The translations under genes and the position numbers were made by a program. The notes beneath the pieces are model-generated. The model was not told the DNA's origin. It did no database searches and saw nothing but the letters and a program-made list of their open reading frames with translations. Of a stretch of DNA of 64,000 nt, positions 15,769 to 43,424 are shown piece after piece (the stretch's first letter is position 1; every line of letters begins with the position of its first letter). This DNA is from Obrimoposthia wandeli (taxonomy: Eukaryota), in NCBI GenBank assembly GCA_977020255.1, contig CDROCS010000186.1, positions 62,001-126,000 of the forward strand, given 5' to 3'.

Positions 15769-15774
15769 GTTGGT

Positions 15775-17040: not shown

Positions 17041-17609
17041 TTGAAAGTAAGGTAAAACGTTTTAATTATTTTTTAAACTGAAAGTACATATATTGTTTAC
17101 AGTCTTATTGAGAAAATGGATTAAAACCTCCTTCTTGTTTTACTTTTTTATCAATTACAATCCAATTCTTTGTCTTTTAATAAACTTATTCTTATTTTTC
17201 TTCGTTTTAACATGTTTCCTTTTAGTACTGGAGTTTAGTATTCTTTTTTTAAATGCGAATATAATTTTGCCTGATATACAGCATTATTTTTAAGTATCAT
17301 AATAACAATAATAAGAATAAGAATATTGTTTATAAGCATTTTATTAATATATACACCATACAAGAATTAAAAATTGATACAGAAAAAGTTACATACATCA
17401 TATTTGAACGAATAATCTGAATGAAACTTTCAAAATGCAATTTCCATTTGATATCTCTGTAGACATGTGAGCGAACTATTTCTTTAAGATGATTACGACT
17501 ATCTTCATTAAAACTTGAAAAGTATTGAACTCTATTTATTGTTCCTTTTATAATTTCATCAACTAATTTATCGTATCTCTCCATTCTTGTATAAATCACC
17601 AAATTTCAA

Positions 17610-18400: not shown

Positions 18401-18439
18401 AGTATTTTTTAAAAATAAAAAACATATATTTGTTCATAA

Positions 18440-18606
18440 GAAACTTTCAAGAAAAAATACAATAGACTCGACTTGACAATGATAATCAAAATCTTTAATA
18501 CCATGAATAATCACTTTTCCACTAGCAAACATAGATGATTAAACTTTAAAATTCTGAGTGCTGGAAACAATTCTGGTTCAAATATACAATTTCTTCCCAT
18601 TTTCAT
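18440..18606 (-). pseudogene. TATA-binding-protein (TBP)-like fragment
   Basis: MKMGRNCIFEPELFPALRILKFNHLC / FASGKVIIHGIKD across one frameshift, compared with TBP repeat-2 YEPELFPGL..LLIFVSGKVVLTGAK. Confidence 0.65.
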
Positions 18607-19264
18607 AGATATTTTATACTACTATAGTTATTTAAAATTAATCTAACATTTTTATTTGGTATTTATTTTGGTATTCGTTAGTGTTTCTATAATTTAATAT
18701 ATTTAAACACATTTATAAATTTATCACATAAATATTTCTTTCGATAACTTTTTATATACTGAAAACTAGCAGATAATGAAATTGTTGGGGTTTCTATACG
18801 AAACTTGGTACAGATCCTCTGAAATGCGGAGGGCCCCAACGTGAGTTCGAATAGAAGCAGGTCTTAAAGTTGGTCGTGGCCTACTTAGTGTTATGGTTGC
18901 CTATCTCTTGTACTATCTGAAGGTATTTGATTTGATGTCTCTTATTCTGAAGGGTGCAAAAACAACTTGTTCTAATGTAGGAAATTGTTTATTGGTAATT
19001 CACGAAACTAAACACAACAATACGTTTATGTACGTATTTCTAAAAAGTATGGTAAAATTCCTAAGACTTCTGTAAGTCTCTACAACAAGTGGGGATGAAC
19101 CACGTATCGATTTTACGTTCGGGGTGATCGAGATTTTAGAGTTATTCTTCTTCCTAGGTTGGTTAATTTATAACGCAACTCTCTTAAATTTCTTCGACTT
19201 AACTTAGAATGTGTGGATAAAGTTTCTTGAATCGGCAACTCTATTTGTTGTGTATTCGACCACG

Positions 19265-19703
19265 AATTGTCCACTGTGGACAATGATTCTCCTAAAAACC
19301 TAATTGTCAACGATGACAATGAAAACTTGTTCCGAATTGTCAACTAGGACAATGAGTGTTTGTTCCGAATTGTCAACTAGGGACAATGAGTGAACCGAAT
19401 TGTCAACTAGGGACAATGAGTGTTTGTTCCGAATTGTCAACTAGGGACAATGAGTGGACCGAATTGTCAGCTAGGGACAATGAATCTTATGGGCAAAAAA
19501 CTCGAACAACTCCTAATTGTCAACTGGGGACAATGAATATGATGGACAATCCTAATTGTCAACTAGGGACAATGATTTTGTTAAAGACAAGGCAAATCCT
19601 AATTGTCAGCTAGGGACAATGAATATGTTTAAAATATGTTAAACAATCCTAATTGCCAACAAGGGGCAATGAATTTATCCTAATTGCCAACTAGGGACAA
19701 TGA
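19265..19703. repeat. Array of 12 palindromic repeats (AATTGTCAACTAGGGACAATGA) with variable 8-31 bp spacers
   Basis: Copies start at about 19265, 19302, 19335, 19368, 19398, 19432, 19462, 19515, 19554, 19601, 19651 and 19682. Each has ATTGTC..GACAAT arms. Confidence 0.9.
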
Positions 19704-19738
19704 TTCTTTTAGCGAGTTTCTCACCTAGGCTGCGACAA

Positions 19739-20095
19739 TTGGACACGAAAGGATAGATTTGTAATGTTCTCAAAGTGGACTCAAATGATAACTGTAATCT
19801 TCTCAAATTTGGACACGAATGATAACTTTTATATTCTCAAATTTGTCTCAAATGATAACTTGTAATATGCTTAATTTGGACTCAAATGATAATTTGTAAT
19901 GTTCTCAAAGTGGACTCAATTGATAACTGTAATCTTCTCAAATTTGGACACGAATGATAACTTTTATATTCTCAAATTTGTCTCAAATGATAACTTGTAA
20001 TATGCTTAATTTGGACTCAAATGATAATTTGTAATGTTCTCAAAGTGGACTCAATTGATAACTGTAATCTTCTCAAATTTGGACACGAATGATAG
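19739..20095. repeat. 135-bp higher-order tandem repeat (four ~33-bp subunits), ~2.5 copies
   Basis: GTAATGTTCTCAAAGTGGACTC recurs at 19761, 19896 and 20031. The subunits share TCAAATGATAAC. Confidence 0.9.
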
Positions 20096-21359
20096 ACTTC
20101 TGATCTAAATTAATTCAATTTATGGAAACTAACAAATTTCCACTCACCAATTCTCCGATTCCTGGGATATTGATTTCCCTTCGCTTCGCTGTGTTCGTTC
20201 TGTTTTTTGCTGTCTGGTTTCTTCAATAGATTATGACTTATATAGTCAGCGATTGATTGACGTTCGGTCCAATATTGTTTGGCGGCAGCTGAATGCTAGA
20301 ACAATCGATTTTAAATTAATTGCACGTAAATGTGCTTACCTTTTTCTGCTGACGTTTTTCTTTCTGCTGACGTTAGCAGATTCTAAATTCCCGTGTTTTT
20401 GTTGCACTTTTGGGTTAATTAATCTAACCTTATATATCCCACACTATACACGACCTTCGTGGTCCTCCTAATTTTTATCCTAACTTCCACTAATTTTAAT
20501 TTTGAATCTAAAATTAATATTTAATTTAATTTTCAACCTTGCTTTCAAGGATTTTTATTTTAGTATTTAATCGACTAATTATTTTAATTTCCTAATTCCT
20601 AACCCTAACAAAATTACTTTTATATGTAGAATTCATTTCATAATTTTTATACAAATTGCGAACTCCTAATTTTTATGACACCTAAAGTACGTTTCCTTGT
20701 AAGTATAAAATTATTAAACACAGTTATGTGCATGTGTGTAGTCTCACGTCCCAATAGTGAAGTGAACTTAGATGATTCAGTTCAATCTTGTCGTCTAAAT
20801 TAGATAGTTTGGTACTATCATTTGAGTCGTTGTCCAAAGTATCAAATTATCTTAACTTGTCTCAGTTTCATCTTTTTCTGGAGTCTCATAAATGTGTCGA
20901 GTTCTACTCTACTCTTATATTTCTTAGTCGGCTAATTGTGCAATTCCACGTTGGTTTGAGTCAGAGATTCTACGATTATTCTGCAATTTTATTAAGTGTA
21001 TGTTCTTCTACAATTATTCTGTCTACTCTCCTTGACACCATTTATTATAAATACCTCAGGTAACTCTTTTAATTGCATCAGTGGTCACCTGAGATTAACT
21101 TTTCATTTATTCCCTCTCGGTTTTTTTTAATTTTATTCTATTTTTAATTTATTTCATTTGCTTCTTTGATTATGTCTACCAATATAAGTCATTCTAATTT
21201 AATATTTTAATTCAAATTTTCCCTTTTAGTACCTCAACATTATAAATGTATCTTTGAAGTTTGTTTACAAATATCAATAGAAACATTATATATATTTTTA
21301 TAAATTTTAGTTTTAGCATATATTTTATATGCAATGTATAATTGAATATTTTTATTTAG

Positions 21360-24300
21360 GAAATCAATGAAGAATGGATTAGTGACAAAACTCGTTTCTC
21401 TTACGATGGTCTGAAGCGTCAAAGATTGGTTTCTGCCATGTCCAAAGATCCCAATACGAATATCTTAACAACGGTAATATTTCATTTATTTGTATTATTT
21501 CATCTTTGATAAAGATCATTTTAGAAATCAAATTATATTTGTATTCATTTATGCTGTGAATTCCAGATTCACTTTTAAGATAAATAATTGTCATGGAGTT
21601 AAATCTAAATTTAAGCAGAACCCACGTTTAAAAATATTGCCTGTTTTGTTTAGTTACAAACTCCACATCTGTCAAATTTACTACGTTTCTTAGTTTATCG
21701 GCACATGCTATACAGCAGTGCTTTTCAAACTTTATGGTACTACGCCTCTATTTAAGAAATATATATTCTTGGTGTCCCCCTTTATTTCATCAGACACATT
21801 TTAAAATGGTAACATATTTATTAATACAAAAAAATGAGAAATAAACATCTGACGGAATAATAACATTTATATTTCATAGTTATATCTAATGCGAAGGATG
21901 TGCTTGTTTAATAGCACAAAGTTTAATAATATATTTTTTTCATTGAGGAGAGTGCTATTCGTAGCTCTTTTTCTATTACTAAATCGGCTCGACATTTGGA
22001 TCTCATTTCAGCTAGTACAGAAAACCCTGTTTTGCGTAATTATGATGTCACGAATGGCAGTAGTACTGTCGTTACTTTGCTTGAAAAAGTACTATATTCT
22101 TCATTTCCATTTAACCAAAATTGAATTAGGGTTTCAATCTTGATATAATATTGTTTGATAAAACGGGATATGTTATTTAAAAAACAAGTTAAAATGCTAT
22201 GGCCAAACTTTCTGGATGTACAACATGGTTATTAACTATATTAATGATGTCTTAATATTGAAGAATTCAGAAAAGATAAATAACTTTATGTTTAAAAAAA
22301 TATTATTGTCAATAACTCAGAGTTACAGATGTGTTACTTAATGTGTTACCCTTTGATTACTTAAAAAATTGGCTCTATATTAAATATATTTTTGTTATGT
22401 TTTTAAAAGATGAAATAATATCTAGAATAATAAATTCCAATAATTAAAATAAACAAAACATAAAACCTTTATCAAATATTATTTATGTTTCGTGTTTCAT
22501 TAGCACATTCATTATATTACTTGAGCAATTATTAAATTATAATTCTAAGTTTTAGAAAATATGAAAAATAATATCTTAGAATCTACTTTAAAAATACACA
22601 TTCTATTTGGTTTTTTCTGTTTGGACCCTTTGAATTAATTGTAAAAATAATTTATATATATATAATTTGTAGCATTAATTTATTTATTTCATACTTGCTA
22701 AAGTAGTCTATTCAATTAGTCTTTTGTTTAATTAAAATCTTTTTAAAACGTCTTCTTATTAAACATGAAATTATTACAAATATATTTAATTTTTTTTATT
22801 CATTGCTTACAAATTTTGTCAGCGCCGATTTATCCCAGATTAGGTTTTGGTGTCTGTTCGACGCAGGGCTCGATTTCAAAGTTTCAATTGAACACATGAA
22901 AACTGTCTCAAATGTAGTCTTTATATTAAACATACTTTATTTTTTGTTTTTATTTATCTTTATAACTAAGCTTATTAATGTTCTATCTTTTTTCGGTTAC
23001 ATTTGAGTAAAGGTACTTTTTCTTTGATAATTTTTCAATCGTTTCAAAAAATGAAAAATTACACAATTTTTATAAAAATATATATTACAAATCCCATGAA
23101 ATTATGTATCTATTTACAGTATACGACAAAAGTCTTGTCACCCATTGATGTATAAATATAAAAAACAATCATTTAGAAGTACAATTTATTTTTTTATAAT
23201 TCACACAGAACTTAGTATTTTGTGGGTCATCCTTATAATTTCTTTACCATTTCTTATTTCTGTAACATTGGTGAAGCCATTTCTTGATAGTTTCAAGTTT
23301 TGTAAAATACCAAGTTGAACTTCTTTCCACAACTTATCACAATTAATTTAGTTGCAATTAAGTTTTAATAATTCCCTATAAGTTTACAGTTGAATTCTTA
23401 ATCAGGAAAATTTTCCTAGCCAACTAAGAACTTTAATATTTTTATTCAGCGACATGACATGGGGTAGTGCCATATTATGTTAAAAAGTAAATTTGCAGTT
23501 TGAAAAAACTAAACATTTACCAATCGTTTCAATATCTTCTAATAGGGGTTGTTATTTTACAGCATTTATGTTTCCATTTTATAATTAAAATTCATATATT
23601 TTCACACATGAGATACATGTTTCCATTTTTTTCCTTCAAATTACGAGTTCTCATGATGTCTTGAAGTATTTGTTGTAAAATTAAAAAGATAGTACAAGAG
23701 TTTGAATTACGCAACTAAATATATTAATATTAAAATAACAATACATATACAAGAATTTTTTCACCACACTTTTCCCCTTTTCTTCTTTACTGTTTGAATC
23801 GGATTGGTTTCTGTCTCTGTCTTCTAGGATGTTTCTTTTGCGATTGTCCCATCTCGTCTTCTGTTATCAGATCAGGAAGTTCCATGGATTAGGATATTAT
23901 AGAGGTGGGTGTTTCTGATTCTGGTGTATTTTCTCCCTTCATTTTTTTTAATATGTACCATATTTCTCCTACTTTTTTATCTCCAATTTTTTCTAACTGA
24001 TAAGAGTGTTTCCCTAACATTTTTAATACTTTATACGGCCCTTCATATCTGGGTTGATCAATCCCTTTAATACCAAGCAATATTCTTATCATTACCATTT
24101 CTCCTTTCTTTAATTCGTTTGCACGTTTCATTTTCTTTGGTACAAATAACTTTGTCTCTTCTCGAATCATTTTATGAATTTCACTTAATCACTTCCTAAG
24201 TTCACCACAGTATTGAAAAATATATTCATCACTAATACAATGGAATACTCAAATTCAGTGTTAAATTAAAATTTTCATTTGGCCATGTAATTTTTCATAC

Positions 24301-27300
24301 TATTTATTTTTTTAGTAAAAAGGGGGCTGCTAATGATTTTATAGTATTTTAAGAAATATTTTATCAAAATTCTCTCAGCAATTCAGGCTGATAAAGTTCT
24401 TTCAGTATATTGATTTTCAATACTAAAATTTTGTTACAAGGGGCAATCTTTCTTTCATCTCTTGTTACGCTTGGGTTACCAAATTACTGCTTAATAATTT
24501 CAGTCTAATCTTTGGCTAGAAGGCCCTAACAAATTTATTTTATTTTTGGAGTTGTCTGGAGAGTTATTGTTAAACTTTAAATATTTTAGGGTTGATTTTG
24601 TCAATAATATTGAGTATATCAGTAGTATTTCATAAATTTATATATTTGTCTGCTTATACAATTTTGGATTGTACGAAACTCTACACTCACATCGTCTGTT
24701 CAATTGCAGAACTCGTGGGTAAACGTGCTACAGCTCATTAGTGAGCACCTCAACAACATCCAGTCCGGCAACGAAATTGGCGCCATCGTGGGAAATTTCT
24801 GTGACGCTGAGACAATGACTGCCATGAAGGACTTCCTCAACGGCTTCGACAGTGAACTGCTCTGTACCGAGGAGAAATTTCCAGATATTGGATCTGGGTA
24901 TGTCGGTATTTCCCACATTTTAATTATTCAAATATTCCATTCAAGACCTTGGTCTCATGGCGTACTTTCCCATACACCGGCACAAAATGATGAAATACAG
25001 TCAATAATTTTATCCTTTTACATCGATTCCAATCGATGTAAATTTCTTTCATAAAGTTATCAATAACATTTCAAAACAGCTTATCTGGTTGTATTTGTTG
25101 GCACAGGAAGCAGAATAACATATTTAACTTCAGAAATGTTTAGGGAATGTTTTCTTGTAAAATTTGTATGTAGCATGATGCAAATTCAAAAATACCGTCA
25201 TTTATCCCTAAATGTTCCTCATGTACCACACTTTGTGAAACATTAGTCTAGTGCAGGTGTCGGGAATATGTGGCTCTTGGTTTGAGAATATGCGGCTCTT
25301 CGTAAAAAGACAAAGGAATTTGGCCATGGAAAATATTTAAATTTTTTATATTAACTAATGTTGTTTTTTGGTTCTACATATAATTGTGAACAATTTTTCT
25401 CGTCTATGAATTTTGTTAAAAATAAATACAGAAGCAGACTAACAGACGAAAGTTTAAAAGCTGTAGTGCAGTTAAAAACTACCAAATATAATCAAAATTT
25501 TAAAAAATTTTAAAAAATTATCTGAAAAGACGCAGGTGCAAAAATTACACTAACTTTTCTGTGAAATATGAATTAATAAAATAACAATATATGAATTTAA
25601 TTAATATTGTGTTTGTTTATTTATTAAGAGAATTTTCTTTATAGTACTTTTCCCATTTAATTTTTATTGCGATTTCGCATTTGTGGCTATATGTTTTTTT
25701 TAATATGGCTCTTAGTTCCAAAAAGGTTCCCGACCCCTGGTATCGTGGTTGAATATCGATTGTTAGCTTCAATCGATTCTATTTTCTCCAGGCTAGTGTA
25801 GGAAATGGCGAGACATTTAGCTTGTGTTACTGCAGGACAGACATTCGATCAAACTACATCATGAACTCCAAGATCGAGGGCATTGAGGAGGCTGACCTGA
25901 TGTTACTGGTTGGCACCAACCCTCGGTTCGATGCCTCAATCGTCAACACCCGCATCCGCAAGGCCTGGGTTCACAATGAGCTTGATGTCGCTCTCATTGG
26001 TAGCGAGGTCGATCTCACCTACGAATACGAGGTTTGACCTCAAACTACAGATTCTGCCTTCATACTTCTAAAATTCTACGTCAGTTAAACTATACGTCCT
26101 ATATTTTTAACATATAAAATCTATCTAATTTCGATTAAATATTCAGCAAACATTAAAGGGGTTTAAAATAACAAAATGTCTAGAGTGTAGATAAATTTTA
26201 AAATTTTATAGTACAGTTTAAAATAATTTTGATTATAAACAATTTTAATTTCATGAGGAATTAGTTTAAAAGATAGATTTTCAAACTTTGGCCTGGGGAG
26301 GATGTTTGTCAGTCTGCGAATGCATTCGGGAAATATTCAGTTAAATTCTAGGGTTTTCGTGGAGTGTGAACTGAGAAATATATATTTCGTGTTTTAAAAA
26401 GATTGGAAAACTTTGATTTACAAATGTTTTAAATATTTAGAATATATTTTATCATCTGTGATATCGGTACAATAAAATAACTAACTAAAAGCGAAATCTT
26501 CAAAAAACAACAATACTAATGTTTAAATGTAAAAATTAAAAACTGAACATGTTGATTCAAAATAACTATTATTTTATATTCCTATTAATTCACGAAATAC
26601 AGTTAATTAGAAATTAATACACTCAGTCAAGCTGAATTCCATAACCTATAATAAAAAGAAATTGACGATAGACACACACTAATAAAAACTTACCAAATGA
26701 TTAAATGATTACCATAATGAAAAATAAATATATGGACGCATATATATACTAACATGCATGGGTAGAAAAAAGGTGTGATTTTAATATATAGGTCAAAGAA
26801 ACAAAATGAATACCATAACGAAAAATGAATATCAACATAGAAAACGACCAAAATGCAGTTTTTATGTGTTATCTGACGTTTTGGACGAATCTAATACCAC
26901 AGAAAGGTAATTTAAGTAATATATTTTAAAATTTTAGTCATAAATAGAGCAGAAAATGAATCAAGAGGAACGCATCTCGAGAAAAAAAATCAAATTGCTC
27001 AATTTAATGCTTGTAGGTCATCTTTAGAGGATAAACAAATACTATTTGATGTATATATAAATGGGGAGGATTATTTTATTTTTGCACGACAACAATGAAT
27101 AAATAAACGTAGCGCGAGATTTAGCGTATTCAGATTTAGATAAACACATAAGATTACAAGAGGTCCGATAGGCTGTTCAAAACCTAAAATCATGGAGTCA
27201 GCAGGAAACTTGCTAATGATTGAATTAGATAATACTCCGTTTATATCCCTTCGAGATATGGTGGACTTTCTGAAGGCTCAGACAATCCGGTGTACGCCAA

Positions 27301-30300
27301 TGATTGCCCCATTTCCTGTATGAAAAAAAGATAGGTTCAAACTATACAGGGACACTGAAAGAAAATGATCGGACATGTTATACTTGAAGAAACAACTTAA
27401 GATCGAGTAAAAAACATGGCTAAGATTGTGGAAAAGGAGCTCAAGCTTGAAGATTACAAAGATCTGCAAACTTACTACAAGCATATAAGAAAGATTTTTG
27501 AAAAACATCTAATAGAAGAAGATGTGCTTGCCGACTAATTAATAAATTACTCACTTTTTTTACTTTTAATTTGATTTGACTTGACTATATTCATAAAATA
27601 AATCCAAATTATTCTAATAATTATATATGTAATCGTATGTATTTCTTTATAGTCATCTTTTTTCTCTTAGTTCTACAGTCTATGTATGCATCCAACATTT
27701 GTTTCGTGAATTATTATAAAATTGTGACAGTTAATTTGAATTAGCCTGTAAATATTTTATAAAGTTCTAAACATTGTTTAAATTCAATAAGCGATTTCAG
27801 TGTGAAGTTATGAAGCTACTGTTATTGTGTAAGTGTTTATTACAGTATCTCGGAGACAAGGCAGAAACTATCGGCCAGATCGCAAACGGCAAGCACCCTT
27901 TTTGTGAGGTATGTACTTGACAATGCAATATTTTTAAGTGACCATAAATAAAAACATCTTTGTTCATTAGGAAATGCAACCTTATACATATTCTAGACAT
28001 ATGCATGAGTGTTTAGACAATGTATTATTGATGAGAAATAATATAATTAGGGTAGAGTATTTTCAGGCAGGCATACGTGTATATAGAGTTGCCTTATTGT
28101 TAGTCAACATTTTAGATTAAAACGACTAAATCAATTTTGAATATATGTTAAGGACCTGACAGTTTTTTTTCATGCATTACGTTTAAGAAAAATAAAACTG
28201 CTTCATTTAATTATAATTAATAATCATTTATTACTCTTACTCAGGGGTTCCGTAGACAAAATCAGCGGTTCTGAGAGCTGAAATTTAATTTTAAAAATTA
28301 ATTTACAAAAATTGCATTGACGTTACTCCCTAAGCATATGCCTACTATAACTACTTAATAAATACTTCATTAGTTAAACTTTACATTTTTTCTTCAATTT
28401 TCAATATAAATAATTTTTATTCTTCACTTTATGGTTTTAAGTTTTATTTAAATAGGTAGGGCTTCCAATATTTTTTTCGATATCAAAGAGATCGAGGCCA
28501 CAAATGTTTGGGAGCCGCTGCTCTAACTTAACTATATGTATAATTATAATGCCACATACAGTCTGACATTGTTAATAAATTAATTTGGAGTGTTAAAGTA
28601 TTCAGTAGTTAAGATCTGCTCTTACATGCAGAAACTGAAGGCAGCCAAGAAACCCATGATCATAGTGGGGTCTGAGTGTCTTGAACGGAAGGATGGTGGT
28701 ACCATTCTCGGTCATCTGCTGGTGGCCAGTGAACACCTCAAGTCTGGGGACTGGCCAGTCTTCAATGTGCTCCACAAGGTGACATCACTCATCCCTTTAT
28801 TTCGTTTTGCTACGTATATAATTGGCATTAGAAGCGTAGTTGTATCTAGGAAAGCAAATGATTAAAAATACTGGGTGTGTAACGTCCTCAACTTATTATC
28901 AATATTTAAATCGGTACGATGTATGGATTTCTTCTTAAAAGTCGCACTATTTAATACAAATTACTCGTCGGCCATTTTAGGTAAGCAGAACGGGCGATGT
29001 GTAGTGAAACAATAATAAATATCGCGTTGATCCGTACTGATATCTGCATCAGGTCTTCCAGGTGAGCAATGTAGTTGGTTCATCCCATATCACAACTTAT
29101 GCTTGTAGTGGTCAGTACAGTCCCATTCGATTTTCTTCACTGTACATTATTTCCCAAATTATATTCATGACTATATCTCTTATCTCAAAGTCGATATGTT
29201 TTTCTTTTCCAAACCATGTTCAGCCTTTCTCATTGATCTTTAGGTTAATAATAACCGTCTAATTGACATTCTTCATTGCATGTCATAGTCTTCCAGACAA
29301 TATTGATAGCCTTCTTGATGCAGAACGCTAGTCAAGTAGCTGCCCTCGATCTGGGATACAAGCCTGGACCTCAAGCAGTGCTGGCCGCCAAGCCCAAAGT
29401 TATATTCCTCCTGGGCACGGATCGAGGTACTCTGAAGCGCACCGACCTACCCAAGGACTGCTTCGTTATTTACATTGGTCAGTTGTGCATTTCACTTCAC
29501 CAAACTAAATATTTTTTAAATAAGACCAATGTGCGATAAATTGCTTCTCCATAATTTTATTAATTATTATTTTAATAAGTATTATGGATCTTATATGATA
29601 TTTTTCACTACCACCCACGATAAGCATAGTTAATGACTAAGGTTCCCTGACATGGTACATGCATGTTACAGGTCACCATGGTGACAATGGGGTGCTGTTG
29701 GCGGATGTGGTGCTGCCTGGTGCATCATACACGGAGAAGCAAGGCACCTATGCTAATACAGAGGGTCGCAGTCAAGAGACACAGATGGTGGTGAGCTCTC
29801 CCGGAGACGCCCGGGACGACTGGAAAATCATTAGGGCACTCTCTGAGATGTGTGAGGGCCGCGCGCTCCCATACGACACGGTGATGGAGTTGCGTGACCG
29901 CATCTGGGAGTTGGCGCCGCACCTGACCCAGTACGGTACATGTGAGACCTCTGCTCTCCTCGCGACAGAGGCAGCACAGCTGGCTAAAGTAAGGCACCCA
30001 TTTCATGTGATGCTATCTGAAACCCTTTCTCTAGTGTTGTCCCATGTTATCAGATCAGCTTCTTTATATTTTTTTGGAAAATCCCTGAATTTTGTGATGT
30101 TTGTATTCATTTCTTGCACCTGAAAAGTCAATTTCTGCATCTGCTCAAAAATGTCAACCAAATAGGCAAGCTGCATGCTCTATTCTTCATCATCCAATCA
30201 CACAAACAATCTATCGTACCGTGAACTCCAATAAATCATTTTATCTCACCTCTAAGCTTAAATAGTCGCTTAATTACATTTCCTCTTAATTACATTTATG

Positions 30301-32438
30301 TTAGAAAAAGGCAAATGCATATTATTAAATTCTAAATGAAGGGTGGTTTGCTGAGAGCTCCTTTGACAAAATTTCAATTTGCATTTTTTGATTCACATCC
30401 TTCGCTATTAGAACTGAAATTGATTTTGACACCAATGCCTGATGATGAATTATACAAATATTTTCACTTTTAATGCAGGATTTCTTACACAAACCTGAAT
30501 CCCATATTTTGTACCCAGCACTATAGATTAAATCCAATAAAAGTCTTTCTATTTCGCAGAAAATTTTTTATTCCAAAATATCCTTAGTACTTATTCCAAG
30601 AGGAAAGCAAAATAGAAACTCATATTTAAATGAACCTATGTGAACATGCATTGATAACACAATAGTCGATTCATCAAGAGGGATTGTAAATCCGCTAAAT
30701 GATACTAACTGGTTTTTATGTATAGCTTGATTCTGAATACTGGGATCCCAATTTGTCCTGTAACTATGAAATACCCTCTCTGGTTGAGAATATATTCTAG
30801 TATTTTAGTGATGTTTTATTTCTGATTTTAGTTAATCGCATAAAACTTTACTTTTAAAAAAATACTTTAAATTAGTACTTGTTTTATACGTTTTATTAAA
30901 ACACAAGTAGAAGTAGAATACATTTATATTACTTACAAGGAAACGTACTTTAGGTGTTATAAAAATTAGGAGTTCGGAATTTGTATAAAAATTATGAAAT
31001 AAATTCTACTTATAAAAGTAATTTCATTATCTGCTAGTTTACAGTATATAAAAAGTTATCGAATGAAATAATTATGTGATAAATTTATAAATGTGTTTAA
31101 ATATATTAAATAATAGAAACACTAACGCGATTATATGAATAAATACCAAATAAAAATTAATTACCTTAAAATATTAAATTGTTATTGGTTTAAAATAAAA
31201 CCTTACCAAATTCCTATTGGATTTTAAAATTCAAAACATTATTTCAACTAGTGCGCTTAAAATTTTGGATTTAAATTATTTAAAATTAAACCAAATCATA
31301 AAATTTATTTTATAAAAATTTAATACATATTACTTTTTTATTATAAATAAATAGCAGCTAAAACTACATTTTTAATATTGCAATATATTATGTTTATCAT
31401 ATACTAAAATTTCGCTGAGTTCATTTTATGACCGTGCGAAACGTTTCCTTGTTAGATATATTACAGAAATTGTTTCCAATATTAAAAAATTATAAAGTTT
31501 GTTATTTTCCACACATGGTTTGAGAAGTAAATTCATAAAGAAACAACCTTTCAATAATGAATTTTTGTGAAACAACAAAACGTCTCTAAATTTATCCCCG
31601 TCCTGTGTGCAATGTTGGGAGTCAAAATTAGCCGTGAACAATTTCAAGAATATGCAAAGCTTGTATTTCAAGTTGATGTTCGTTAAACAAACATTGGTCA
31701 ATTATGTGTGAAACAATATTTTGTACACAAATTTTTATTAGTTTCATTTAGTTCTTTTGTATCAGAATTCCCCATATTGAAAATAGATGATTGGTAAATG
31801 TGACGGGGCACTACAAAATGTAATGTGGGTATCCTTAAATATTTTGAGTTATCAACATGTTCAGAAAACGCATTTTATACGCAAAAAGGATTAATTCGGT
31901 CTCAGCTGTCATATTCACACCACTAACAACAGTATTTGATATGTCCTTTCTAGATTCCTAGAAGAAGCCCTTTGTTTTCAACACATTTTCCAACATTATT
32001 ATGAAAACCAATAAAATTCGCAATGAACAACAGGTACCAAATGTCAGCTTTATGAAGTAGAGTAACTTTCAAACATAGTTTCGATGAATCAATAAACAGT
32101 CTCCTCCTTTAAGAAAAAAGTAAAATGATTTTTAGAGATAAAATTATAATTATGCAATTCTTTTACAATTTTATCGCAATCAGTTTTCATAACTTATTTT
32201 TATTCATGTTGTGTTGTGTTATTTAGTGGAAAACATGTCTGATAGAATTCTTATGCAGGCAGACAAGGGCACAAAGCTGGACAGATCGGTTCCCATCTCA
32301 TCTAGTCTGAGACAGCTAGAGGACTTCTATATGACGGACAGCGTGAGCCGGGCTAGTCAGACGATGGCAAAGTGCCGGAAAGCGGTTGCCGATAGCTACG
32401 CAAAGGAAGATAGTCCGGCACAAAAAGTGGCTCTGTGA
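21360..32438 (+). CDS. NDUFS1: NADH:ubiquinone oxidoreductase 75 kDa subunit, 3' eight exons (5' exons not found in window)
   Basis: Exons 21360-21473, 24710-24897, 25836-26031, 27846-27908, 28632-28778, 29324-29477, 29672-29988 and 32259-32438. All junctions are GT-AG with consistent phases. Translation runs [67 protein letters not shown]. Confidence 0.95.
21716..22260 (-). mobile_element. hAT/Buster (ZBED5/SCAND3-like) transposon 3' remnant
   Basis: [39 protein letters not shown] is a Buster transposase C-terminus. A TIR-like CAGTGCTTTTCAAAC lies at ~21716. Confidence 0.7.
23600..24180 (-). mobile_element. Gypsy LTR retrotransposon 3' remnant: integrase GPY/F tail, PPT and start of 3' LTR
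   Basis: ORF 23889-24170 contains [19 protein letters not shown]. The polypurine tract AAAGAAGAAAAGGGGAAAAG is followed immediately by TGTGGTG at 23768 (minus strand). The LTR end was not located. Confidence 0.7.
25254..25739. mobile_element. hAT-type MITE in an NDUFS1 intron
   Basis: TIRs CAGGTGTCGGGAA / TTCCCGACCCCTG. Degenerate 8-bp TSD GTCTAGTG / GTATCGTG. Confidence 0.75.
27000..27540 (+). mobile_element. Degenerate Tc1/IS630-like transposase remnant
   Basis: [38 protein letters not shown] resembles the HTH region, and [21 protein letters not shown] resembles the C-terminus. The catalytic core is missing. Confidence 0.4.
28242..28520. mobile_element. hAT-type MITE in an NDUFS1 intron
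   Basis: Imperfect TIRs CAGGGGTTCC / GGAGCCGCTG. 8-bp TSD CTCTTACT / CTCTAACT. Confidence 0.65.
30330..31701 (-). mobile_element. Scattered hAT/Buster transposase remnants
   Basis: FTIPLDEST (~30680), [11 protein letters not shown] (~30450) and [17 protein letters not shown] (~31570) resemble the Buster LDESTD, HCxIHxEAL and LLxHTEVRWLSRG motifs. Confidence 0.55.
31850..32090 (-). mobile_element. Small DNA-transposase remnant (possibly Chapaev-like)
   Basis: [19 protein letters not shown] resembles the LLLGLQxGYTKYCCFLCEWDSR transposase motif. The superfamily assignment is from memory. Confidence 0.35.
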
Positions 32439-32905
32439 GAAGCTGCTCAAGTGGTCTAGATTCAGCAAATTAGATGATCTAAGCGACCAACCGCTTGCAG
32501 ATTATGACGATCAGTTACTTAATTAGTAGTAATATCGCTTATTTATAATGTGTTTTTGTTTTGCTTTTGTTACCAAATCCAAATTTCATAACATTTGGAA
32601 ATTCAGTTTTGTTAAATTAAAAACATAATTTCTTGGATACTGAATTTTAAAATACATATTTGTGTTACTTTTACACTTAGTAAGAATTCACAGTAATGGT
32701 AATAATTAAATTACTGTATTGTTATTTGACTTTTTGTTAATTTTATCATATTTTATGAAGGTTTTTAATATTATCTTGTTATTTTATATTAAACTCGTGA
32801 AAACTAGCTTCGACTATATTGGATTTTAGTGCATATTTTTATACTTGTATCTTGCTCGATTGAGTACTATATTTTTCTGTTAATGGGGGCCGGCAATTTC
32901 TAATA

Positions 32906-33855
32906 CAGCAGTCCCTCGATTTGCGTGGGGTTACGTTCTAAAAATAACGCGCAATTCAAACTATAATTAAGGTGATTGTTTCCTATGAACAAAAAAATAT
33001 ATACATTTTGATAAAAAAATTCAATCTGCAAATGTTTAATAATAGTAATGTTTTCTCTAAAAAATCATTGTGCTTCCTTTGTAATAGTTTTTATATAAAA
33101 TATTAATCTTTTTACTAAAACAAAACGTGAAATAAAATCAATAATTAAACTTTATTTACTTATATCTAAACTAAAATGAATTCATTTGACAATTTACCAT
33201 TCCATTTCTTCTTGTGGTGAAGTGTTTGCTATATGCTGTGGTATACGAACTCATACTGGTTTGCTTCCTTGGAATATATTGCGAGATTTCTTTATAAGGT
33301 GCCACATCTAATTCCTATTAAACTTTAATACTCTATCCATGTAACTGAGTTGGGAAGCTAATTTAAAATTCTAAATAATTTTTCAGTTTACTTTTCGTTG
33401 GATCTTTTACAACAGCTTCAGTTTCCTGTTCTCTTTCTGCTTCCAAATGCATCAAAATATATTTTGTAGACAATTCTTCATTGTGTGCCTCAAAGACTTC
33501 AATTACATCCGCTTCATTTAAATCTTGAAATCCGTCTCCTCCAATCCTGTGACTAATTTCAAAGATTTCATCTATTACAGACATTTGAATGTTGGAATTT
33601 TCTGCAAAGCTTTCCTTCCATAAGTTTTTCCTAACTGCGTTCATAGTCGATTAATTTCATCCCAAACAGCCTGAATATTTTTTTCAGCATTAGCATTAAC
33701 CTTTTTAAAAATGAAATTTTCAGGTTATGACATTGAAAAATTGAATATTTTTTAAAATCTTTTTAAAGCTTTTCGAATTTTTTTGTGCAAAATAATTTCT
33801 AGGTGGTAAATACTCAAACACGCATAACAAACCCGCGCTGTTTGAAAGACTACTG
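32906..33855 (-). mobile_element. Internally deleted Tigger/pogo DNA transposon
   Basis: TA-flanked imperfect TIRs, CAGCAGTCCCTCG.. at 32906 and ..GAAAGACTACTG ending 33855. ORF 33363-33644 (EIFEISHRIGGDGFQDLNEADVIEVFEAHNEELS) matches the Tigger transposase C-terminus. Confidence 0.75.
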
Positions 33856-35772
33856 TATTTTAAAGAGGGAGTCTGTCAATCTAAAAAGGTTGGAATCGTC
33901 GATTTAAATTTTAAAATACAGTATTAACTTTTATTTTCTAACAAAATGAATGTTAAATTCTCTAATTAAATAAGGTTTAATGTCAGAATAATATTAGAAA
34001 AACTAAGGAATTAATATAAATTAATAAAACCAATTAAATGTTTAAAGTATAATTATCATGTTTTAAATCATTCCTTAACATTATATTGGACTTCGTAAAA
34101 ACACTGATTTATTTAATGTTAATAAAATTAAATGAAAAAATGTATTTTAAAATGCATTAACTAATAAAATAATATAACTTTGGACTGAACATTGAACTTT
34201 CATAAACTGACTATCATATTAAAGTTTAATTTTATTAATTTTAAAGATTAATTTGATTGACATTATTTCAAGGATTTCGAGTTACTATATTTATATACAC
34301 AATAAGTTTCAATACTACAACTACAATACTTCAATGCCTACAACCTCAATTTTTGGGTACCGTATAAATCCATAGATTAAATGATACCATCATGTATTTT
34401 TTTCCAAGTTAAAAATACGGGCTCATTTTATCTATGACTTTTGCTTTTATACCTTATCAAATCTATAATTATGTTGGGAATTGAAATATATAGTTTAAAT
34501 TAATTTATCAAAGTGCCCACAGTTGAACAGTGATTTTTAAGACAGCGATGATCAGTTTTGATCTTCTGCGTCACGGTGAGAAAATTTCCCACGAAGTAGA
34601 AGATAACACAGATGGAATTATAGCATCATCTATCGATTTTCTGTCTGCCCAATTTTAAGTGCACAACATACACACACCTGATATTTTACTGCCTTTATCT
34701 GTGTAGTGGTGTCAATTTATGTGTGTGTGTCTGCAAATTTATATAATGTCACTTACGAAAGAAATATTAATATTAAATTGTTTAGCATAGAGAGATTGGA
34801 TACAATTTCTAAGACCAATTTTTAAATTGCAACACAAAAGAATAATTATTGCTGAACATATTTATTACTGTTATTACAGAATTCCGAAATTATTGCTTAC
34901 CATTATTATTACTGTTAATACCGAAAACATAAATGATTGCTAACCATCGCTATTAGATTTACTGATTAAAACATAATTTTTAATGATCATTATTTTTATT
35001 GTTATTGATGAAAAAAGAATTTTTGCTTAACATTTTTGTTTCTGTTATCACAGAAGACAGGAATGTTTACTAATGTATTAGTTGGAAATAATAATCTATT
35101 AAAAATATAACAATTATATAAAAACACTAATTTCTATTATAATAAAATTTTTACAATTTTAATACCCTATTTTAACTTGAAAAACATGAATTATGACATC
35201 GTCTTATCTATGGATAAATGGTATCTGCTGTTGACAAACATACAAATTCCAAACTAGATCTTAACGGCATAACTTAATTTTGTCCAAAGTATGTTTCAAC
35301 AATAAAGGGAGAACGTTAGTAATTTTAGTAAACTAAACTAAAATTAACAAAGTTAGATTAATATATATGTTTTTAAAATTCTCACATTTGATGTGCTGAA
35401 TATATTTTGTCCCTGATAATGTTTTCTTCAAAATGATTTAATCCCATATTGTATTTATTCGTTATTTAATCATAAGAAATATAATTATATCTATTTTCAG
35501 TTAATTTTCTTTTGTAAATAATAAAATCGGTTAAAACACAACAACTTCCTTCCTCGATTTTCAATAAATTATTTTAAAAGAAAAAATACTTTACCATCAT
35601 TTTTATAACAAATTTTAAATTACCACCCAAAATAATTTTATACTAGAATAACTAAATTAATTATATATCAATAACTGTTAAAATAAATATTGATAACATT
35701 CAGTTACTGACTATTTAAAGTGCATAATCCCCATTCAGAAATTCTAAGTTGGGTTATAGGGAGAGATTCCGA

Positions 35773-35845
35773 GCAGCGTTAAATCGGTGGTAGAATATGT
35801 GACTTGTAGGTAATGAAATCCGTGGTTCAATTCCCGGTCGAAGCA
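35773..35845 (+). pseudogene. tRNA-derived pseudogene or SINE head (tRNA-Gly-like)
   Basis: A-box-like TCGGTGGTAGAAT and B-box GGTTCAATTCCCGGTCGAAGCA span 73 nt. The acceptor and anticodon stems do not pair properly. Confidence 0.5.
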
Positions 35846-35977
35846 ACTAATTTTCTTTCAAACTTAGCATAATTATTTAAAGCATGCCAAAAAATTTGAC
35901 ACTTACTTTTGGTATTTAATATTTTTTTTATATTTAATCTTTAGTTAGTGCTTCACAGATTTTTATATTATATTAAG

Positions 35978-37868
35978 TGTTAGGATTAGGTTTTTAATAA
36001 AATTAAAAATAAATAATTGTTTTATAGTAAAATGAAAATCCTTGAAAGCAAGGTTGAGAATTAAATAAATTTTAATTTTAAAATCAAGTTAAATTATTAG
36101 GACTAAAATAGGAATAAATATTAAAAGGACCACGAAGGTCGTGTATAATGCGTTATATATAAGGTTAAATTAACTAGTAAAAGTGCAAAAAATAATAAAT
36201 AGCAACGTCAGCACAAAATTAAAGAAAATTAATTAAGAAGGAAATATGAACATAGCAATCAGCCAACGTCAAATTTGCCACGTAAGCACTTTTTAGTGTC
36301 AATCAACTTACCTTTCTTAGCCAGGTGCAAATTCTTCCAGATCCAGGTGCAAGAGACTATAAAAGTCTACTTACCCAACTCAAGAGTGACAGAACAGTAA
36401 TTTCCAGAGAGTCGCTAAATCCAATAAAGGTACTCAGCAGTAGACCTTCCCCCGAATCAATCACGAGAATCGAGACAACGACACCGAGAAAACAGCTGGT
36501 AAGCGCTCCTAAAAAACTGAGCTTATATTGATTTTAGAATTTCATATAGATTCTCGGAATTGCCGATCCTCGCATTAAGCAGTTAATATCGAGCCAGAAA
36601 AATAAAGGACGTGTCAACCACAAGAAGATTATCACTCTCAGCATTTGCAGCATTATCCCGAACTACGGAAAAGCAGAGACGGTTTTGCAGCCAGAAGACA
36701 GGAAAGGATTCGTGCAGAAACAGCCATCGGATATCGAGTTCTCGAGATCACCGTTCCAGAACAGCGAACTTACTGAGGGAAACCCCGGAACACTTGGACG
36801 TTATCTTTCCGGAATTGTCTACGGATTGGAAGGTGAGCCAAGGCGTGTCGCGATAAGTTTGGGATTGCTAAAAATATATTGGTTTTACATAAATTAAAAT
36901 AAATTTCTGGGATTAATAAAAGAAGTTTGAATTGCACTATTTTATATAAAGTGATTAATAAAAGAAGTTTAAATTGCACTAATTGAGATAAAGTGATTAA
37001 TAAAAGAAGTTTAAATTGCACTATTTTATATAAAGTGATTAATAAAAGAAGTTTAAATTGCACGATTTGATATAAAGTGATTAATAAAAGAAGTTTGAAT
37101 TGCACTATTTTATATAAAGTGATTAATAAAAGAAGTTTAAATTGCACTATTTGAGATAAAGTGATTAATAAAAGAAGTTTGAATTGCACTATTTGATATA
37201 AAGTGATTAATAAAAGAAGTTTAAATTGCACTATTTTATATAAAGTGATTAATAAAAGAAGTTTAAATTGCACTATTTTATATAAAGTGATTAATAAAAG
37301 AAGTTTGAATTGCACTATTTGATATAAAGTGATTAATAAAAGAAGTTTAAATTGCACTATTTTATATAAAGTGATTAATAAAAGAAGTTTGAATTGCACT
37401 ATTTTATATAAAGTGATTAATAAAAGAAGTTTGAATTGCACTATTTTATATAAAGTGATTAATAAAAGAAGGTTTACTAAATTACCTTGTCACAGCTGAG
37501 AGTACAGACTCTAGCGACCAACCCACCCTAAAGTAATATCGATACGTGGTTCATCCCCACTGGTGTAGAGACTTACAGAAGTCTTAGGAATTTTTACTAT
37601 ACTTTTTAGAAGATACGTACGTAAACGTATTGTTGTGTTTTAGTCTAGTGTGTTACCAATAAACGATTTCCTACATTAGAAAACGTTGTTTTAAACCCTT
37701 CAGATTAAGAGACATAAAAAACAAACACTTTCAGATAAGTAATTGAGACAGGCAACCATAACATTAAGTAGGCCACGACCAACTTTAAGACCTGCTTCTA
37801 TCAGAACTCACGTTGGGGCCCTCCGCACACAAGAGGATCTATACAAGTCTCGTATAGAAACCCCAACA
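35978..37868 (+). mobile_element. Long solo LTR (1891 bp), copy X2, same family as 18783-20610
   Basis: TGTTAGG...CCCCAACA with perfect TSD TAAG (35974-35977 and 37869-37872). It shares AGGACCACGAAGGTCGTGT, TATATAAGG (36156-36164) and a ~330-bp 3' block (37536-37868) with X1. AATAAA at 37658. Confidence 0.8.
36911..37470. repeat. 42-bp tandem repeat, ~13 copies, inside solo LTR X2
   Basis: Unit GATTAATAAAAGAAGTTTAAATTGCACTATTTTATATAAAGT. It explains the repetitive ORF 36770-37441. Confidence 0.95.
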
Positions 37869-38469
37869 TAAGCATCGTAAGTAACAGTACTGAAATTGTA
37901 TACAGATGTTTTTTATTATATTTTATAGTGGCATTCATGCAATACTTCATATAAGTTACTACATAGACAAATTTAATATGTATTATTATACGGATAGCTT
38001 TAGCTGAAGTAACTTAAATTTTGACTTTTTATGAGGTTTTATTCACGCATATCAAAATACAATTAATTTCTAATTATAATTATTATGTAAAGTACTTTCA
38101 TTTTCTAAATTTTTTTTAATCCTGTGTTATTGTTTTAAATACCTTGAAATATTGTATTTTTTATGCCATATAGCTATATATTGTGATTCAAAATAAGATT
38201 TTAACAAAATCTTTTTTGTGAATTAATTGTTAAATGATTTTAGTATTTATATGTTTTAACATATTACTCAAGGCAAATAATTTTAGTAGATATATAAAAT
38301 TAAAGAAACATATTTGAAGAAGTTTATATTGTAATTTATTTAAAAAATATATTTAAAATTATGTCACATGATATTAAAAATTAATTTTACACATTTAGAT
38401 TAACTTTGTTTTTGTAATATTTTGAAATTTTGAATAATTTTTACTTTTTGTGTAAAATATACCATTTGG

Positions 38470-41799: not shown

Positions 41800-43424
41800 T
41801 TATACAGTTTACATTGTATAAAGATGAATACATGAGGTCTATTTATGAAGAAACATTGATAAATGTTAAAGGTACAAGAAAGTTAGACAACCATACTAAT
41901 TGCTTGTATGTTGAGACAAAAAGAGTCGATCTCACAAGAGATAGTGTTGAATTTGTTGGAACAACTTTACGTCAATATTCAGTCCTACTTTTGTTAAGTT
42001 CCAATGAGCTACAATTCTTATGACGGAATAAACGTCAATCGTTCTTCTGTTAATTCTTCGCGAAATGCAAAAATCATTGTGTAAAAACCCTTCTAACTCG
42101 CTAAATTTCTTATGCGATGTATCGATACGATTTTTCTAAGATTTGGCTAGTGCACTTGCTGGTCCTTGATGGTGTCGTCCTGATTACCTCTGTTCGATAT
42201 GAATATCTGTGACAGCGTCGATTTGGTATGGTCTCCCTCTGGGCTTCAGTGACTGTTACATGCTTGATCTGATCTGTATTGATCGGAGTCGTCACATTCT
42301 ACAGTTGAAATCCCATTAACTGGTTTATTATTGATGTCAATGATATAAAAGAATTCATAGCTTCCCTGAGTCTTTGTACTAAGGATTCGCCGTTTATCTG
42401 GCTATACTCTAATCTCTATATTGCTACATCAAATACATTATTTAATTGTTCACATTCCATCTCTTTGTACTTTAATTGATCTTTAGTGATCTTAGTTTGA
42501 ATTATATTTTTATAAGCTCTAGTTATGTATGTTGCTGCATAATCTATATGTTTTTTGATTGTTTTTTTGTATATTTATCAACTTTGATTAATGAACAAGG
42601 ACGTCAAAAAATCGTAGTTTGGTATTGTTTATATATCTTAATTTTGTCAGATCTCTATATTTACATTATTGGTTTGTTAGGAACATAAGGTAAAATTGAG
42701 TTTATCCTGTAAATGATTGTTCTGTTGTTCTGTAAGCAATTAAATCAGGTGCTATGTGTAAGTCCCAATCTGGTTAATTGTTATTTATGTATGAAGTCAT
42801 CTTATCCTCAAAAATTATATTAAATCTTTCAACTAAACCGTCTGTTTGATGGTGGTATGGTGATGTGTTCATATTTTTATTAGAAATTAGAAGAAAAAAA
42901 AGCGATTGATCCTAAAATATGATTTATAAATTCTAAAAAATCGATTATAACTTTTACACAATTAATTCACAAAATCGATTATAACTTTTACACAATTAAT
43001 TTCGTTTATATTTCTCACAAGTATTTCTGTCTGAGTGCTTCTTCGCGAACTAATGGATGCAGAGTATGCCTGTCTGAGTTCTTCTTCACGAACTAAGGGA
43101 GTTTGAGTGCTTCTAAATAATGGAGTCTGAGTTCCGCGACTAATAGGTTCCCGTTCTTTCTACTCAATTAGTTTTCAACTTCCTTTTCGAAATCCATGCA
43201 TCCTCCCCCACTAGAATTGTCTTTCTCTGTCCCTTCTTACACCGTTCCACTCATTCTACACACATTTCCCCACGGCCTCTTCACGGTCCTAATTTATTTT
43301 AATTCGATATTTTAATTTAAAATCAATTTATTTTTAATTCATTTCGACCTTTGGTTTTAAGGTTAAATTTTTAAAATATAAATAATTATTTTATTTATCT
43401 TATTCAATTTTCCTTAATCTAACA
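41800..43424 (-). mobile_element. Gypsy remnant: truncated LTR related to X1/X2 (43424 to ~42900) followed by degenerate integrase
   Basis: The minus strand starts TGTTAGATTAAGG at 43424 and has an AGGACCGTGAAGAGGCCGTG variant of the X1/X2 motif. At ~42700-42870 it reads TSPYHHQTDGLVERFN..WD..AYRTT..TG..FYLMF (Gypsy integrase core). Confidence 0.65.

Follow-up and report, generated by a model that had tools for sequence, protein, structure and literature searches.

According to the sections of PMC3485330 used here, the LTR of the rice element Retrosat2 has a TATA box near its 5' end and a 2023-bp R region, delimited from motifs, which carries tandem repeats and several AATAAA; U5 is kept among homologues, whereas U3 and R are not. 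For animal Metaviridae LTRs, the portion of PMC3601003 used gives the SIR consensus TGTTRNR..YNYAACA, AATAAA as the best conserved motif, with a G/T-rich tract downstream, a poorly conserved U3 and long R, and R lengths of 10-150 bp. Among invertebrates, the cestode ta-TRIM/lennie elements are described in part of PMC4558846 as solo LTRs with 4-bp target-site duplications (TSDs), R-only transcripts and spliced read-through RNAs. A motif-inferred R of 2 kb (PMC3485330) and R-only transcripts of solo LTRs (PMC4558846) are already known. In the foamy virus LTR, a splice donor lies upstream of the poly(A) signal and U1 binding suppresses polyadenylation (PMC3694450, in part), and the first strand transfer recombines LTRs, with R/U5 and U3 mixed between co-packaged relatives (sections of PMC6894440 and PMC5668417).

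We analysed a 64,000-nucleotide window of Obrimoposthia wandeli DNA (the whole stretch), which contains two LTRs, X1 and X2 (Table 1). For NDUFS1, the best match (67%) is from oyster, and the 120 of 440 matches listed include no close relative. They show a Retrosat2-like layout, with an early TATA, a shared poly(A) signal more than 1 kb downstream and repeats between. Retrosat2 likewise has a long LTR and a repeat-bearing kilobase R, but it belongs to a plant and has a U5 of ~1 kb within an LTR of 3.2 kb; the arrays of X1 and X2 are far larger and wholly different between sister subfamilies, and ATG depletion is not among the evidence for R reported in the sections of PMC3485330 used. X1 and X2 also resemble the animal Metaviridae model in their SIR, in an AATAAA that precedes a G/T-rich tract and in a poorly conserved U3 and long R, although the R proposed here would be about ten times longer than the model quotes (PMC3601003). 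Similar to ta-TRIM/lennie (PMC4558846), they are invertebrate solo LTRs with 4-bp TSDs; unlike TRIMs, they lack paired repeats, a PBS and a PPT, and an R-only RNA made from them would exceed 1.2 kb.

The sequence-only reading had described X1 and X2 as solo LTRs of one family with TG..CA termini, 4-bp TSDs and similar lengths, and its coordinates and all of these traits were confirmed. Both LTRs end in the short inverted repeats TGTTAGG..CCCAACA, which fit the animal Metaviridae SIR consensus (PMC3601003). X1 is an insertion, since an uninterrupted copy of its target repeat has one ATTT; such a pre-insertion site was found for X1 only, one of the two LTRs. In both, promoter, poly(A) signal and G/T tract follow each other on one strand, as judged from sequence motifs. 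The opposite orientation of X1 was rejected because that strand has 40 ATG from +397 to the end; it also lacks AATAAA and ATTAAA. No PBS- or PPT-like flank was seen by eye, no full-length element with paired LTRs of this type occurs in the 64-kb window, and an exact 33-nt probe gave no match in prokaryotic genomes. The sequences support X1 and X2 as solo LTRs belonging to a single kin group; we regard them as young members of two sister subfamilies of an apparently Gypsy-type LTR retrotransposon.

Table 1 Features of X1, X2 and related sequences in the window
Feature	Position	Strand	Remarks
X1 solo LTR	18783..20610	-	1828 bp; sense strand without any ATG
X1 TSD ATTT	3' copy 18779..18782; 5' copy 20611-20614	-	
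X1 5' block	20398..20610	-	U3 start, SIR, upstream TATA at 20436
X1 diverged promoter zone	20131..20395	-	ACGTCA motifs; donor-like sites 20339, 20147
X1 second TATA motif	20247-20235	-	in diverged promoter zone
X1 +30 motif	20214-20210	-	putative TSS
X1 array 1	19739..20099	-	33-35-bp units in 135-bp higher-order repeat, 2.7 copies, 97% matches
X1 donor-like site	19724	-	just upstream of array 2
X1 array 2	19251..19703	-	12 units, 30-53 bp, inverted-repeat (hairpin) core
X1 3' block	18783..19123	-	R end (94% to X2), AATAAA 18993-18988, CA, G/T-rich element, ~190-bp U5
Unbroken copy of repeat hit by X1 (empty site)	30930..31173	+	single ATTT at 31021-31024
X2 solo LTR	35978..37868	+	1891 bp; sense ATG only at +55, +171, +269
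X2 TSD TAAG	35974-35977 and 37869-37872	+	
X2 5' block	35978..36192	+	upstream TATA at 36156
X2 diverged promoter zone	36193..36512	+	donor-like sites 36282, 36499
X2 second TATA motif	36355-36367	+	in diverged promoter zone
X2 +30 motif	36388-36392	+	in diverged promoter zone
X2 unique segment	36550..36833	+	46% G+C, ATG-free; donor-like site 36833 at its end
X2 42-bp array	36911..37476	+	13.5 copies, 95% matches; 14 sense AATAAA
X2 3' block	37526..37868	+	AATAAA 37658-37663, U5
X3, distant LTR-like 5' end	43285..43424	-	like X1/X2 over ~120-140 bp only
Decayed Gypsy-type integrase core remnant	42672..42890	-	downstream of X3, same strand; candidate link to X3

Gypsy/Metaviridae elements make 4-bp TSDs, the length found at X1 and X2, and BEL/Pao elements 5-bp ones. 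BEL/Pao was rejected on this length and on a Pao relic at 45170-49081 that has no similarity to X1 or X2. TRIM and Cassandra elements have two terminal direct repeats with PBS/PPT, and Cassandra a 5S RNA domain in its LTR; they were rejected because the 5' and 3' blocks of X1 and X2 are not mutual repeats and Rfam gave no match. Ginger elements also have TG..CA ends and 4-bp TSDs, and the window lacks a paired-LTR element, but it is barely conceivable that X1 and X2 are Ginger-type non-autonomous DNA elements with internal cargo, moved by an integrase-like transposase. The terminal inverted repeats of Ginger-type transposons are tens of bases long, whereas the terminal inversion here covers only 8-9/10 bp, with no longer TIR in self-BLAST, and the order of TATA, donor, AATAAA and G/T is that of an LTR. 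The cestode lennie element provides a precedent for the TSD length (PMC4558846).

A third, truncated relative had been placed at 43424 beside a Gypsy integrase. The relationship stands for the first ~120-140 bp of X3 (z 7.0 and 0/300 shuffles as high against X1; z 4.8 and 2/300 against X2), and the remnant is indeed Gypsy-type, but no similarity to X1 or X2 was found beyond that part (31 and 18 of 100 shuffles as high). X3 lacks both TATA boxes. Seven of the ten scanned matches of the integrase remnant carry RT, RNase H and integrase in this order, and two more have RNase H followed by integrase.

At the 5' end, the earlier reading of a ~300-bp shared block with a TATA motif was right about the TATA and not about the length: the BLAST-alignable part covers ~213 bp at 79% identity, followed by fading homology. 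Counting substitutions, X1 and X2 are 84% identical in the 5' block, 94% in the R end, 84% in the next part and 92% thereafter. The zone from +216 to +480 is a diverged homologous promoter, where each LTR carries another TATA box, followed 30 nt later by a 5-mer that is identical in X1 and X2. By motif-chain score, this homology reaches about +480 in X1 and +535 in X2 (56 against 24.6±7.3; 0/500 shuffles), and it is weak by plain local alignment (z 2.8; 6/300 shuffles). In a test devised only after the motif had been noticed, the TATA-anchored match between X1 and X2 is 12, a value reached by none of 5000 shuffles; the remaining TATAWA sites, out of 500 in the window, give 9 at most. We rejected a tandem duplication of the promoter module: when the two TATA regions were compared, 223 and 168 of 1000 shuffles reached the observed score.

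The proposed ~330-bp common 3' block with AATAAA measures ~341 bp at 88% identity (X1 +1488-1828 against X2 +1549-1891; local score 452, shuffle maximum 32). Its edge is sharp, with identity jumping from ~10/20 to 17-20/20, and the R end just before the shared AATAAA is the most conserved stretch (126 sites). The U5 of X1 terminates in a predicted stem. Past +116, the only AATAAA/ATTAAA of X1 is the shared 3'-block signal, followed by CA and the G/T-rich tract; the lack of internal poly(A) hexamers in X1 is only marginally significant (P 0.036). In X2, 17 AATAAA lie on the sense strand from +411 to +1681. The upstream TATA lies at +175/+179 and the shared AATAAA at +1618/+1681 (X1/X2), that is 1443 and 1502 nt apart, as the ~1.45 kb first estimated.

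Each middle has its own tandem arrays, as first observed, two in X1 and one (42 bp x 13.5) in X2. The middles had been called entirely different over ~1.3 kb; their non-homology holds, over ~1.0 kb, because the homologous promoter zone runs to ~+480/+535. X1 +481-1490 and X2 +536-1550 do not align (score 25 against 23.0±1.9; 22/100 shuffles as high), and no homology was found between them in inverted orientation (87/100 as high); in the motif-chain test they score below their own shuffles because of the tandem arrays. The 115-codon Met-less frame in the unique segment of X2 has no Pfam match, and a protein search with it, which covered proteins of 203-2000 aa only, gave 195 candidates, none at E<=10. 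There is no Rfam match at the gathering threshold and no tRNA. In both middles, every 120-nt window of the sense strand folds no better than z -1.5; the strongest values are at +201 of antisense X1 (-4.2) and, in the sense direction, at the 3' end of X2 (-2.7).

Such middles could have been swapped between the shared blocks by double template switching, as functional repeat-RNA cargo that is also made from solo LTRs. The ~1.0 kb without homology, the sharp 3'-block edge and the young arrays private to each middle would agree with this, and strand-transfer recombinant LTRs are documented (PMC6894440, PMC5668417). We nevertheless find it distinctly unlikely, given the absence of coding, RNA-family or sense-fold signals and of any breakpoint on the 5' side, where homology decays gradually through a barely alignable promoter zone; neutral saturation is therefore enough. 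The exchangeable cargo of the sequence-only reading is not upheld, as there are only two copies and saturated divergence with array turnover suffices. We are equally doubtful of its most far-reaching form, an AUG-free R cassette slot of more than 1.2 kb in an animal Gypsy lineage, in which whole middles would move between subfamilies through template switching in the 5' block combined with a first-strand transfer that takes place early, in the conserved R end, each solo LTR giving a capped, polyadenylated, untranslatable repeat RNA with arrays as protein-binding or decoy platforms, while the host library diversifies.

Sense ATG is absent from the whole of X1 and from X2 after +272. The pooled middles contain none against 11.6 expected (0/5000 shuffles), and the pooled non-redundant 1428 nt none against 16.6 (shuffle minimum 6, n = 5000); none of 2000 shuffles of the latter lacked any one trimer. 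ATG is the sole trimer of 64 missing from both downstream parts, and X1 has 43 CAT and X2 has 12. Of all ATG-free runs in the window, counting both strands, X1 (1907) and X2 (1660) have the two longest, with the third at 666, and all 1120 other 1.4-kb windows have at least six ATG. X1 +1-396 is ATG-free too (P 0.025 for +1-204, 0.009 for +205-396). Because sense-strand ATG is absent, the middles behave as a ribosome-scanned 5' leader and not as U3. This suggests an unusually long untranslated leader with fast turnover, not swapped cargo, and points to a leader for an assumed downstream ORF of the element itself, not a free-standing RNA. The LTR had also been read as a self-contained unit for a repeat RNA; a solo LTR whose promoter lies upstream of its poly(A) signal would yield an R-only transcript, but the ATG signal points to the leader. 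Since none of the 556 sites one step from ATG was converted, drift since insertion is bounded under ~1.6%, if rates are equal.

The array units contain words that we take to be GATA-like and Sox-like, and an ATCGATA motif marks the abrupt start of the 3' block. Both would suit an ordinary long U3, with the arrays as enhancer repeats before a TATA-less promoter at the 3'-block start and an R of ~140 nt; in LTRs, moreover, U3 is usually the part that varies (PMC3601003). Such a U3 is highly improbable, because it is never in a 5' leader and cannot account for the strand-specific loss of ATG in two unrelated middles; it also faces the conserved TATA/+30 motif, donor-like sites upstream of the arrays and the lack of a shared TATA ahead of the 3' block.

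A promoter far upstream of the poly(A) signal is supported independently by the strand-specific ATG absence, the second TATA/+30 motif and the single late AATAAA/ATTAAA of X1. This part of the earlier claim of an exceptionally long R is backed by the ATG result, which fits a short R with a long U5 equally well: the upstream promoter and ATG-free leader would be kept, polyadenylation would occur soon after the TSS, and the arrays and 3' block would be U5. X2 has an extra AATAAA at +446 (36423), in the promoter zone, X1 has a variant CATAAA at +487, and the poly(A) signal of cestode ta-TRIMs is non-canonical (PMC4558846, in part). However, no proximal signal is common to X1 and X2, the sole shared AATAAA with CA and G/T tract sits in the 3' block after the 94% stretch, and AATAAA is the motif best conserved in animal Metaviridae (PMC3601003). 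We consider the short R unlikely, though not negligible.

We propose that X1 and X2 are probably long-R LTRs, with a promoter near the 5' end, a kilobase AUG-free leader, fixed ends and a drifting, array-rebuilt middle. Given the shared 3'-block AATAAA, R would be ~1.24-1.49 kb, between a U3 of ~200-400 bp and a U5 of ~190 bp, with transcription starting behind one of the two TATA boxes and ending at that AATAAA. In a full-length element, the 5' R-U5 copy would be a leader of at least 1.43 kb scanned by ribosomes, and selection would therefore purge every AUG and leave the rest free. With only AUG selected against, the middle would drift to saturation and be rebuilt by slippage-born tandem arrays, while integration, promoter, polyadenylation and first strand transfer would hold the ends fixed. 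Intermolecular strand transfer within the common R end may mix 3' blocks between subfamilies, and in a kilobase R the crossover could fall within R. Donor-like sites in R, predicted from 7-8/9 consensus matches (offsets 272/305, 464/522 and 887/856 in X1/X2), may bind U1 and mask internal AATAAAs, as in foamy virus, which is a retrovirus and serves as an analogy only (PMC3694450). A common intron spliced from R was set aside as no more than a lead: the donor-like offsets are similar, but the would-be introns also lack ATG, and therefore selection would act on the unspliced leader. Against the long R, the 17 sense AATAAA of X2 would need read-through, a +397 start does not account for the ATG-free X1 +1-396, and a +209 start is hard to reconcile with the X2 ATG at +269.

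If RNA mapping bears this out, R in this animal LTR would be some ten times as long as the retroviral and plant R regions quoted in PMC3601003, and the LTR would provide a test bed for the distance of ribosome scanning along a retroelement leader, for the masking of the 5' poly(A) signal and internal AATAAAs, and for whether first-strand transfer is early in R. The strand-specific absence of ATG offers an inexpensive means of orienting solo LTRs and of telling U3 from R-U5 without transcripts.

X1 and X2, two solo LTRs of one kin group, both start with TGTTAGG and end with CCCAACA, agreeing with the integrase-recognition consensus for LTR termini in an excerpt of PMC3601003. They are flanked by target-site duplications of ATTT (X1) and TAAG (X2). 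A second copy of the X1 host repeat at 30930-31173 carries a single ATTT and matches both X1 flanks contiguously (96% and 92% identity over aligned sites), demonstrating that X1 is an insertion with a 4-bp target-site duplication. The termini, the duplications and this empty site thus bear out the LTR coordinates, TG..CA ends and 4-bp duplications proposed in the sequence-only reading.

By BLAST, the two LTRs share 79% identity over the first ~213 bp and 88% over the last ~341 bp. No X1/X2 homology was detected within +481 to +1490, counted from the LTR 5' end on the sense strand (score 25 versus 23.0±1.9; 22 of 100 shuffles as high). The unrelated middles therefore stand, but their size is ~1.0 kb rather than the ~1.3 kb first proposed, because seven short words, chained in collinear order, join +216-480 of X1 to +216-535 of X2 (score 56 versus 24.6±7.3; 0/500 shuffles). 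Plain local alignment of this zone scores weakly (6/300 shuffles). The X1 middle contains 34-bp units arrayed with a higher-order period of 135 bp, as well as 12 hairpin-core units, while that of X2 combines 284 bp of unique sequence with an array of 42-bp units; where young, the arrays show 95-97% internal identity.

The sense strand of X1 lacks ATG in all 1828 nt and that of X2 beyond +272, whereas the CAT counts are 43 and 12, respectively. ATG alone of the 64 trimers is absent from both downstream parts, and no ATG-free runs in the window, whichever the strand, are longer than those of X1 and X2 (1907 and 1660; next 666). Once the arrays are trimmed to one or two units and the shared block is entered a single time, the pooled 1428 nt contain no ATG, where 16.6 are expected and 5000 shuffles never gave fewer than 6; none of 2000 shuffles of this pool missed any trimer. 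The unrelated middles alone give 0 against 11.6 expected (0/5000 shuffles), and each of 1120 other 1.4-kb windows has at least 6 ATG. Of the further tandem arrays checked, four in number, three are rich in ATG and the remaining one (242 bp) contains 0 and 1. A 5' leader that is under selection because ribosomes scan it avoids AUG in a strand-specific way, and we infer that the absence here has this cause. So read, it fixes the LTR orientation and puts the transcription start upstream of the arrays, arguing against a long U3, in which the arrays would precede that start. None of 556 sites one step from ATG has been converted, which bounds post-insertion drift at ~1.6%; thus the 6-16% divergence of the ends arose between actively replicating lineages. 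Elsewhere, window 134-1958 (minus) comprises three adjoining ATG-free runs (526, 666 and 466 nt) with only three ATG over ~1.8 kb, possibly another leader-like element.

Within the word chain, a second TATA motif shares 12 of 13 bases between X1 and X2, and exactly 30 nt past its first T, beyond a spacer that is not conserved, both have the same 5-mer. The score of the pair is 12 (0/5000 shuffles), in a test devised after the motif had been noticed; of the 500 TATAWA sites that the window contains, the two are mutual best partners (next best 9 or 8). Two observations complicate the picture: the first 396 nt of X1 also lack ATG, which favours initiation behind the upstream TATA, whereas X2 carries an ATG at +269. 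From these motifs, the upstream promoter, the inner promoter or both may be in use. The antisense of X1 +201-320 (window 20291-20410) has an unusually good predicted fold (z -4.2; X2 counterpart -2.4).

X1 has no AATAAA or ATTAAA from +116 to +1617 (shuffle mean 3.1, P 0.036). Downstream of the AATAAA common to both (X1 +1618, X2 +1681) come CA and a G/T-rich tract, the animal Metaviridae layout in the same excerpt of PMC3601003. Conservation peaks in the 126 aligned sites preceding this AATAAA (94% identity; 5' block 84%), as expected if strand transfer uses this end of R. The length of R would be ~1240 (X1) and ~1290 nt (X2) from the inner start or ~1430 and ~1490 nt from the outer, with a U5 of ~190 nt. 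The ATG result cannot separate this from a long U5, and 17 further sense AATAAA in X2 past +411 count against a long R. By analogy with foamy viruses, where U1 at donors upstream of the poly(A) signal suppresses it (PMC3694450, in part), U1 at donor-like sites (X1/X2 +272/+305, +464/+522, +887/+856) may mask the AATAAAs of the X2 array. A long R also has a precedent in rice Retrosat2, whose 2023-bp R holds repeats and several AATAAA before a conserved U5 (excerpt of PMC3485330). R-only transcripts are described for cestode ta-TRIMs, invertebrate solo LTRs (PMC4558846, in part). Ogre elements of plants and the giant Burro elements of planarians have LTRs of 1.9-6.5 kb (excerpt of PMC6431247), so the length of X1 and X2 is not in itself unusual. 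Among the papers listed in our search, none reports AUG-free LTR middles or an R of kilobase length in animals, which is weak evidence as most subscription journals lay outside the search.

The proposed truncated relative X3, an LTR-like 5' end at 43424 (minus), resembles X1 and X2 over only ~120-140 bp (0/300 and 2/300 shuffles). The integrase remnant beside it on the same strand (42672-42890), translated with X at stops, matches 3841 proteins, and seven of ten scanned matches have RT, RNase H and integrase in Gypsy order. The remnant is of Gypsy type; neither a PBS nor any further piece of pol was found to tie it to X3. The top identity among the 150 matches listed is P0132 (54%); in P0132 and P0161, both polyproteins, the reverse transcriptase is preceded by a Monjiviricetes fusion glycoprotein, recalling the env-before-pol layout of Burro in the excerpt of PMC6431247, although scores single out no such clade. 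X3 has three loose motif copies past its conserved start (43025-43160, minus); ATG occurs in it five times up to +228 and is absent from +231-430 (P 0.11), and ATTT precedes its TG, as in the X1 duplication. BEL/Pao accounts for the large relic at 45170-49081, which is unrelated to X1 and X2.

The database matches listed include no close relative of the host, which is an animal (NDUFS1 67% to oyster). Since earlier NDUFS1 exons were not found within the window, an intron of >21 kb probably holds X1 in antisense orientation; X2 is located ~3.6 kb beyond the last mapped exon. A fragment split over two frames at 40945-41140 (plus) presumably resembles the C-terminus of a ubiquitin-conjugating E2 enzyme.

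Features of the window
Feature	Position	Strand	Remarks
X1, solo LTR	18783-20610	minus	1828 bp
X2, solo LTR	35978-37868	plus	1891 bp
NDUFS1, eight exons	21360-32396	plus	residues 286-723 of oyster protein
Gypsy-like integrase C-terminal remnant, second	23889-24188	minus	SH3_Tf2-1, E 2e-4; inside NDUFS1 intron
Broken BEL/Pao pol	45170-49081	minus	Peptidase_A17, weak rve
Ubiquitin-domain frame	49993-50373	minus	just upstream of BEL/Pao pol, same strand
Decayed relic, presumably Polinton/adintovirus-like	~6500-18600	minus	
Polymerase-region repeat	8868-9634		63%; in relic ~6500-18600
Integrase	16125-16499		weak match; in relic ~6500-18600
BIR	18079-18408	minus	in relic ~6500-18600
Decayed relic, presumably Polinton/adintovirus-like	52112-55952	minus	
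DNA_pol_B_2	52115-54606	minus	in relic 52112-55952
Decayed relic, presumably Polinton/adintovirus-like	62582-63052	plus	
Tandem array	51106-51893		period 196 bp
Tandem array	56285-56685		period 111 bp
Tandem array	57404-57645		period 99 bp
Tandem array	63580-64000		period 46 bp

We then propose a model for the evolution of these LTRs. The ends would be kept by the needs of integration, promoter, poly(A) and strand transfer; the last ~60 nt of both form the same predicted stem. The middle would need only to be AUG-free and weakly structured, and could thus saturate while slippage rebuilds its arrays. Intermolecular first-strand transfer, which can join R/U5 of one RNA to the upstream part of another (excerpt of PMC6894440; recombinant LTRs, PMC5668417, in part), could account for the sharp-edged, better-conserved 3' block. 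No cargo emerged from Pfam and protein searches with the X2 frame or from Rfam and tRNA searches, and divergence to saturation with slippage suffices, so the exchangeable cargo suggested in the sequence-only reading is not needed. X1 and X2 are best described as long-leader solo LTRs with fast-turnover middles and, probably, a long R.
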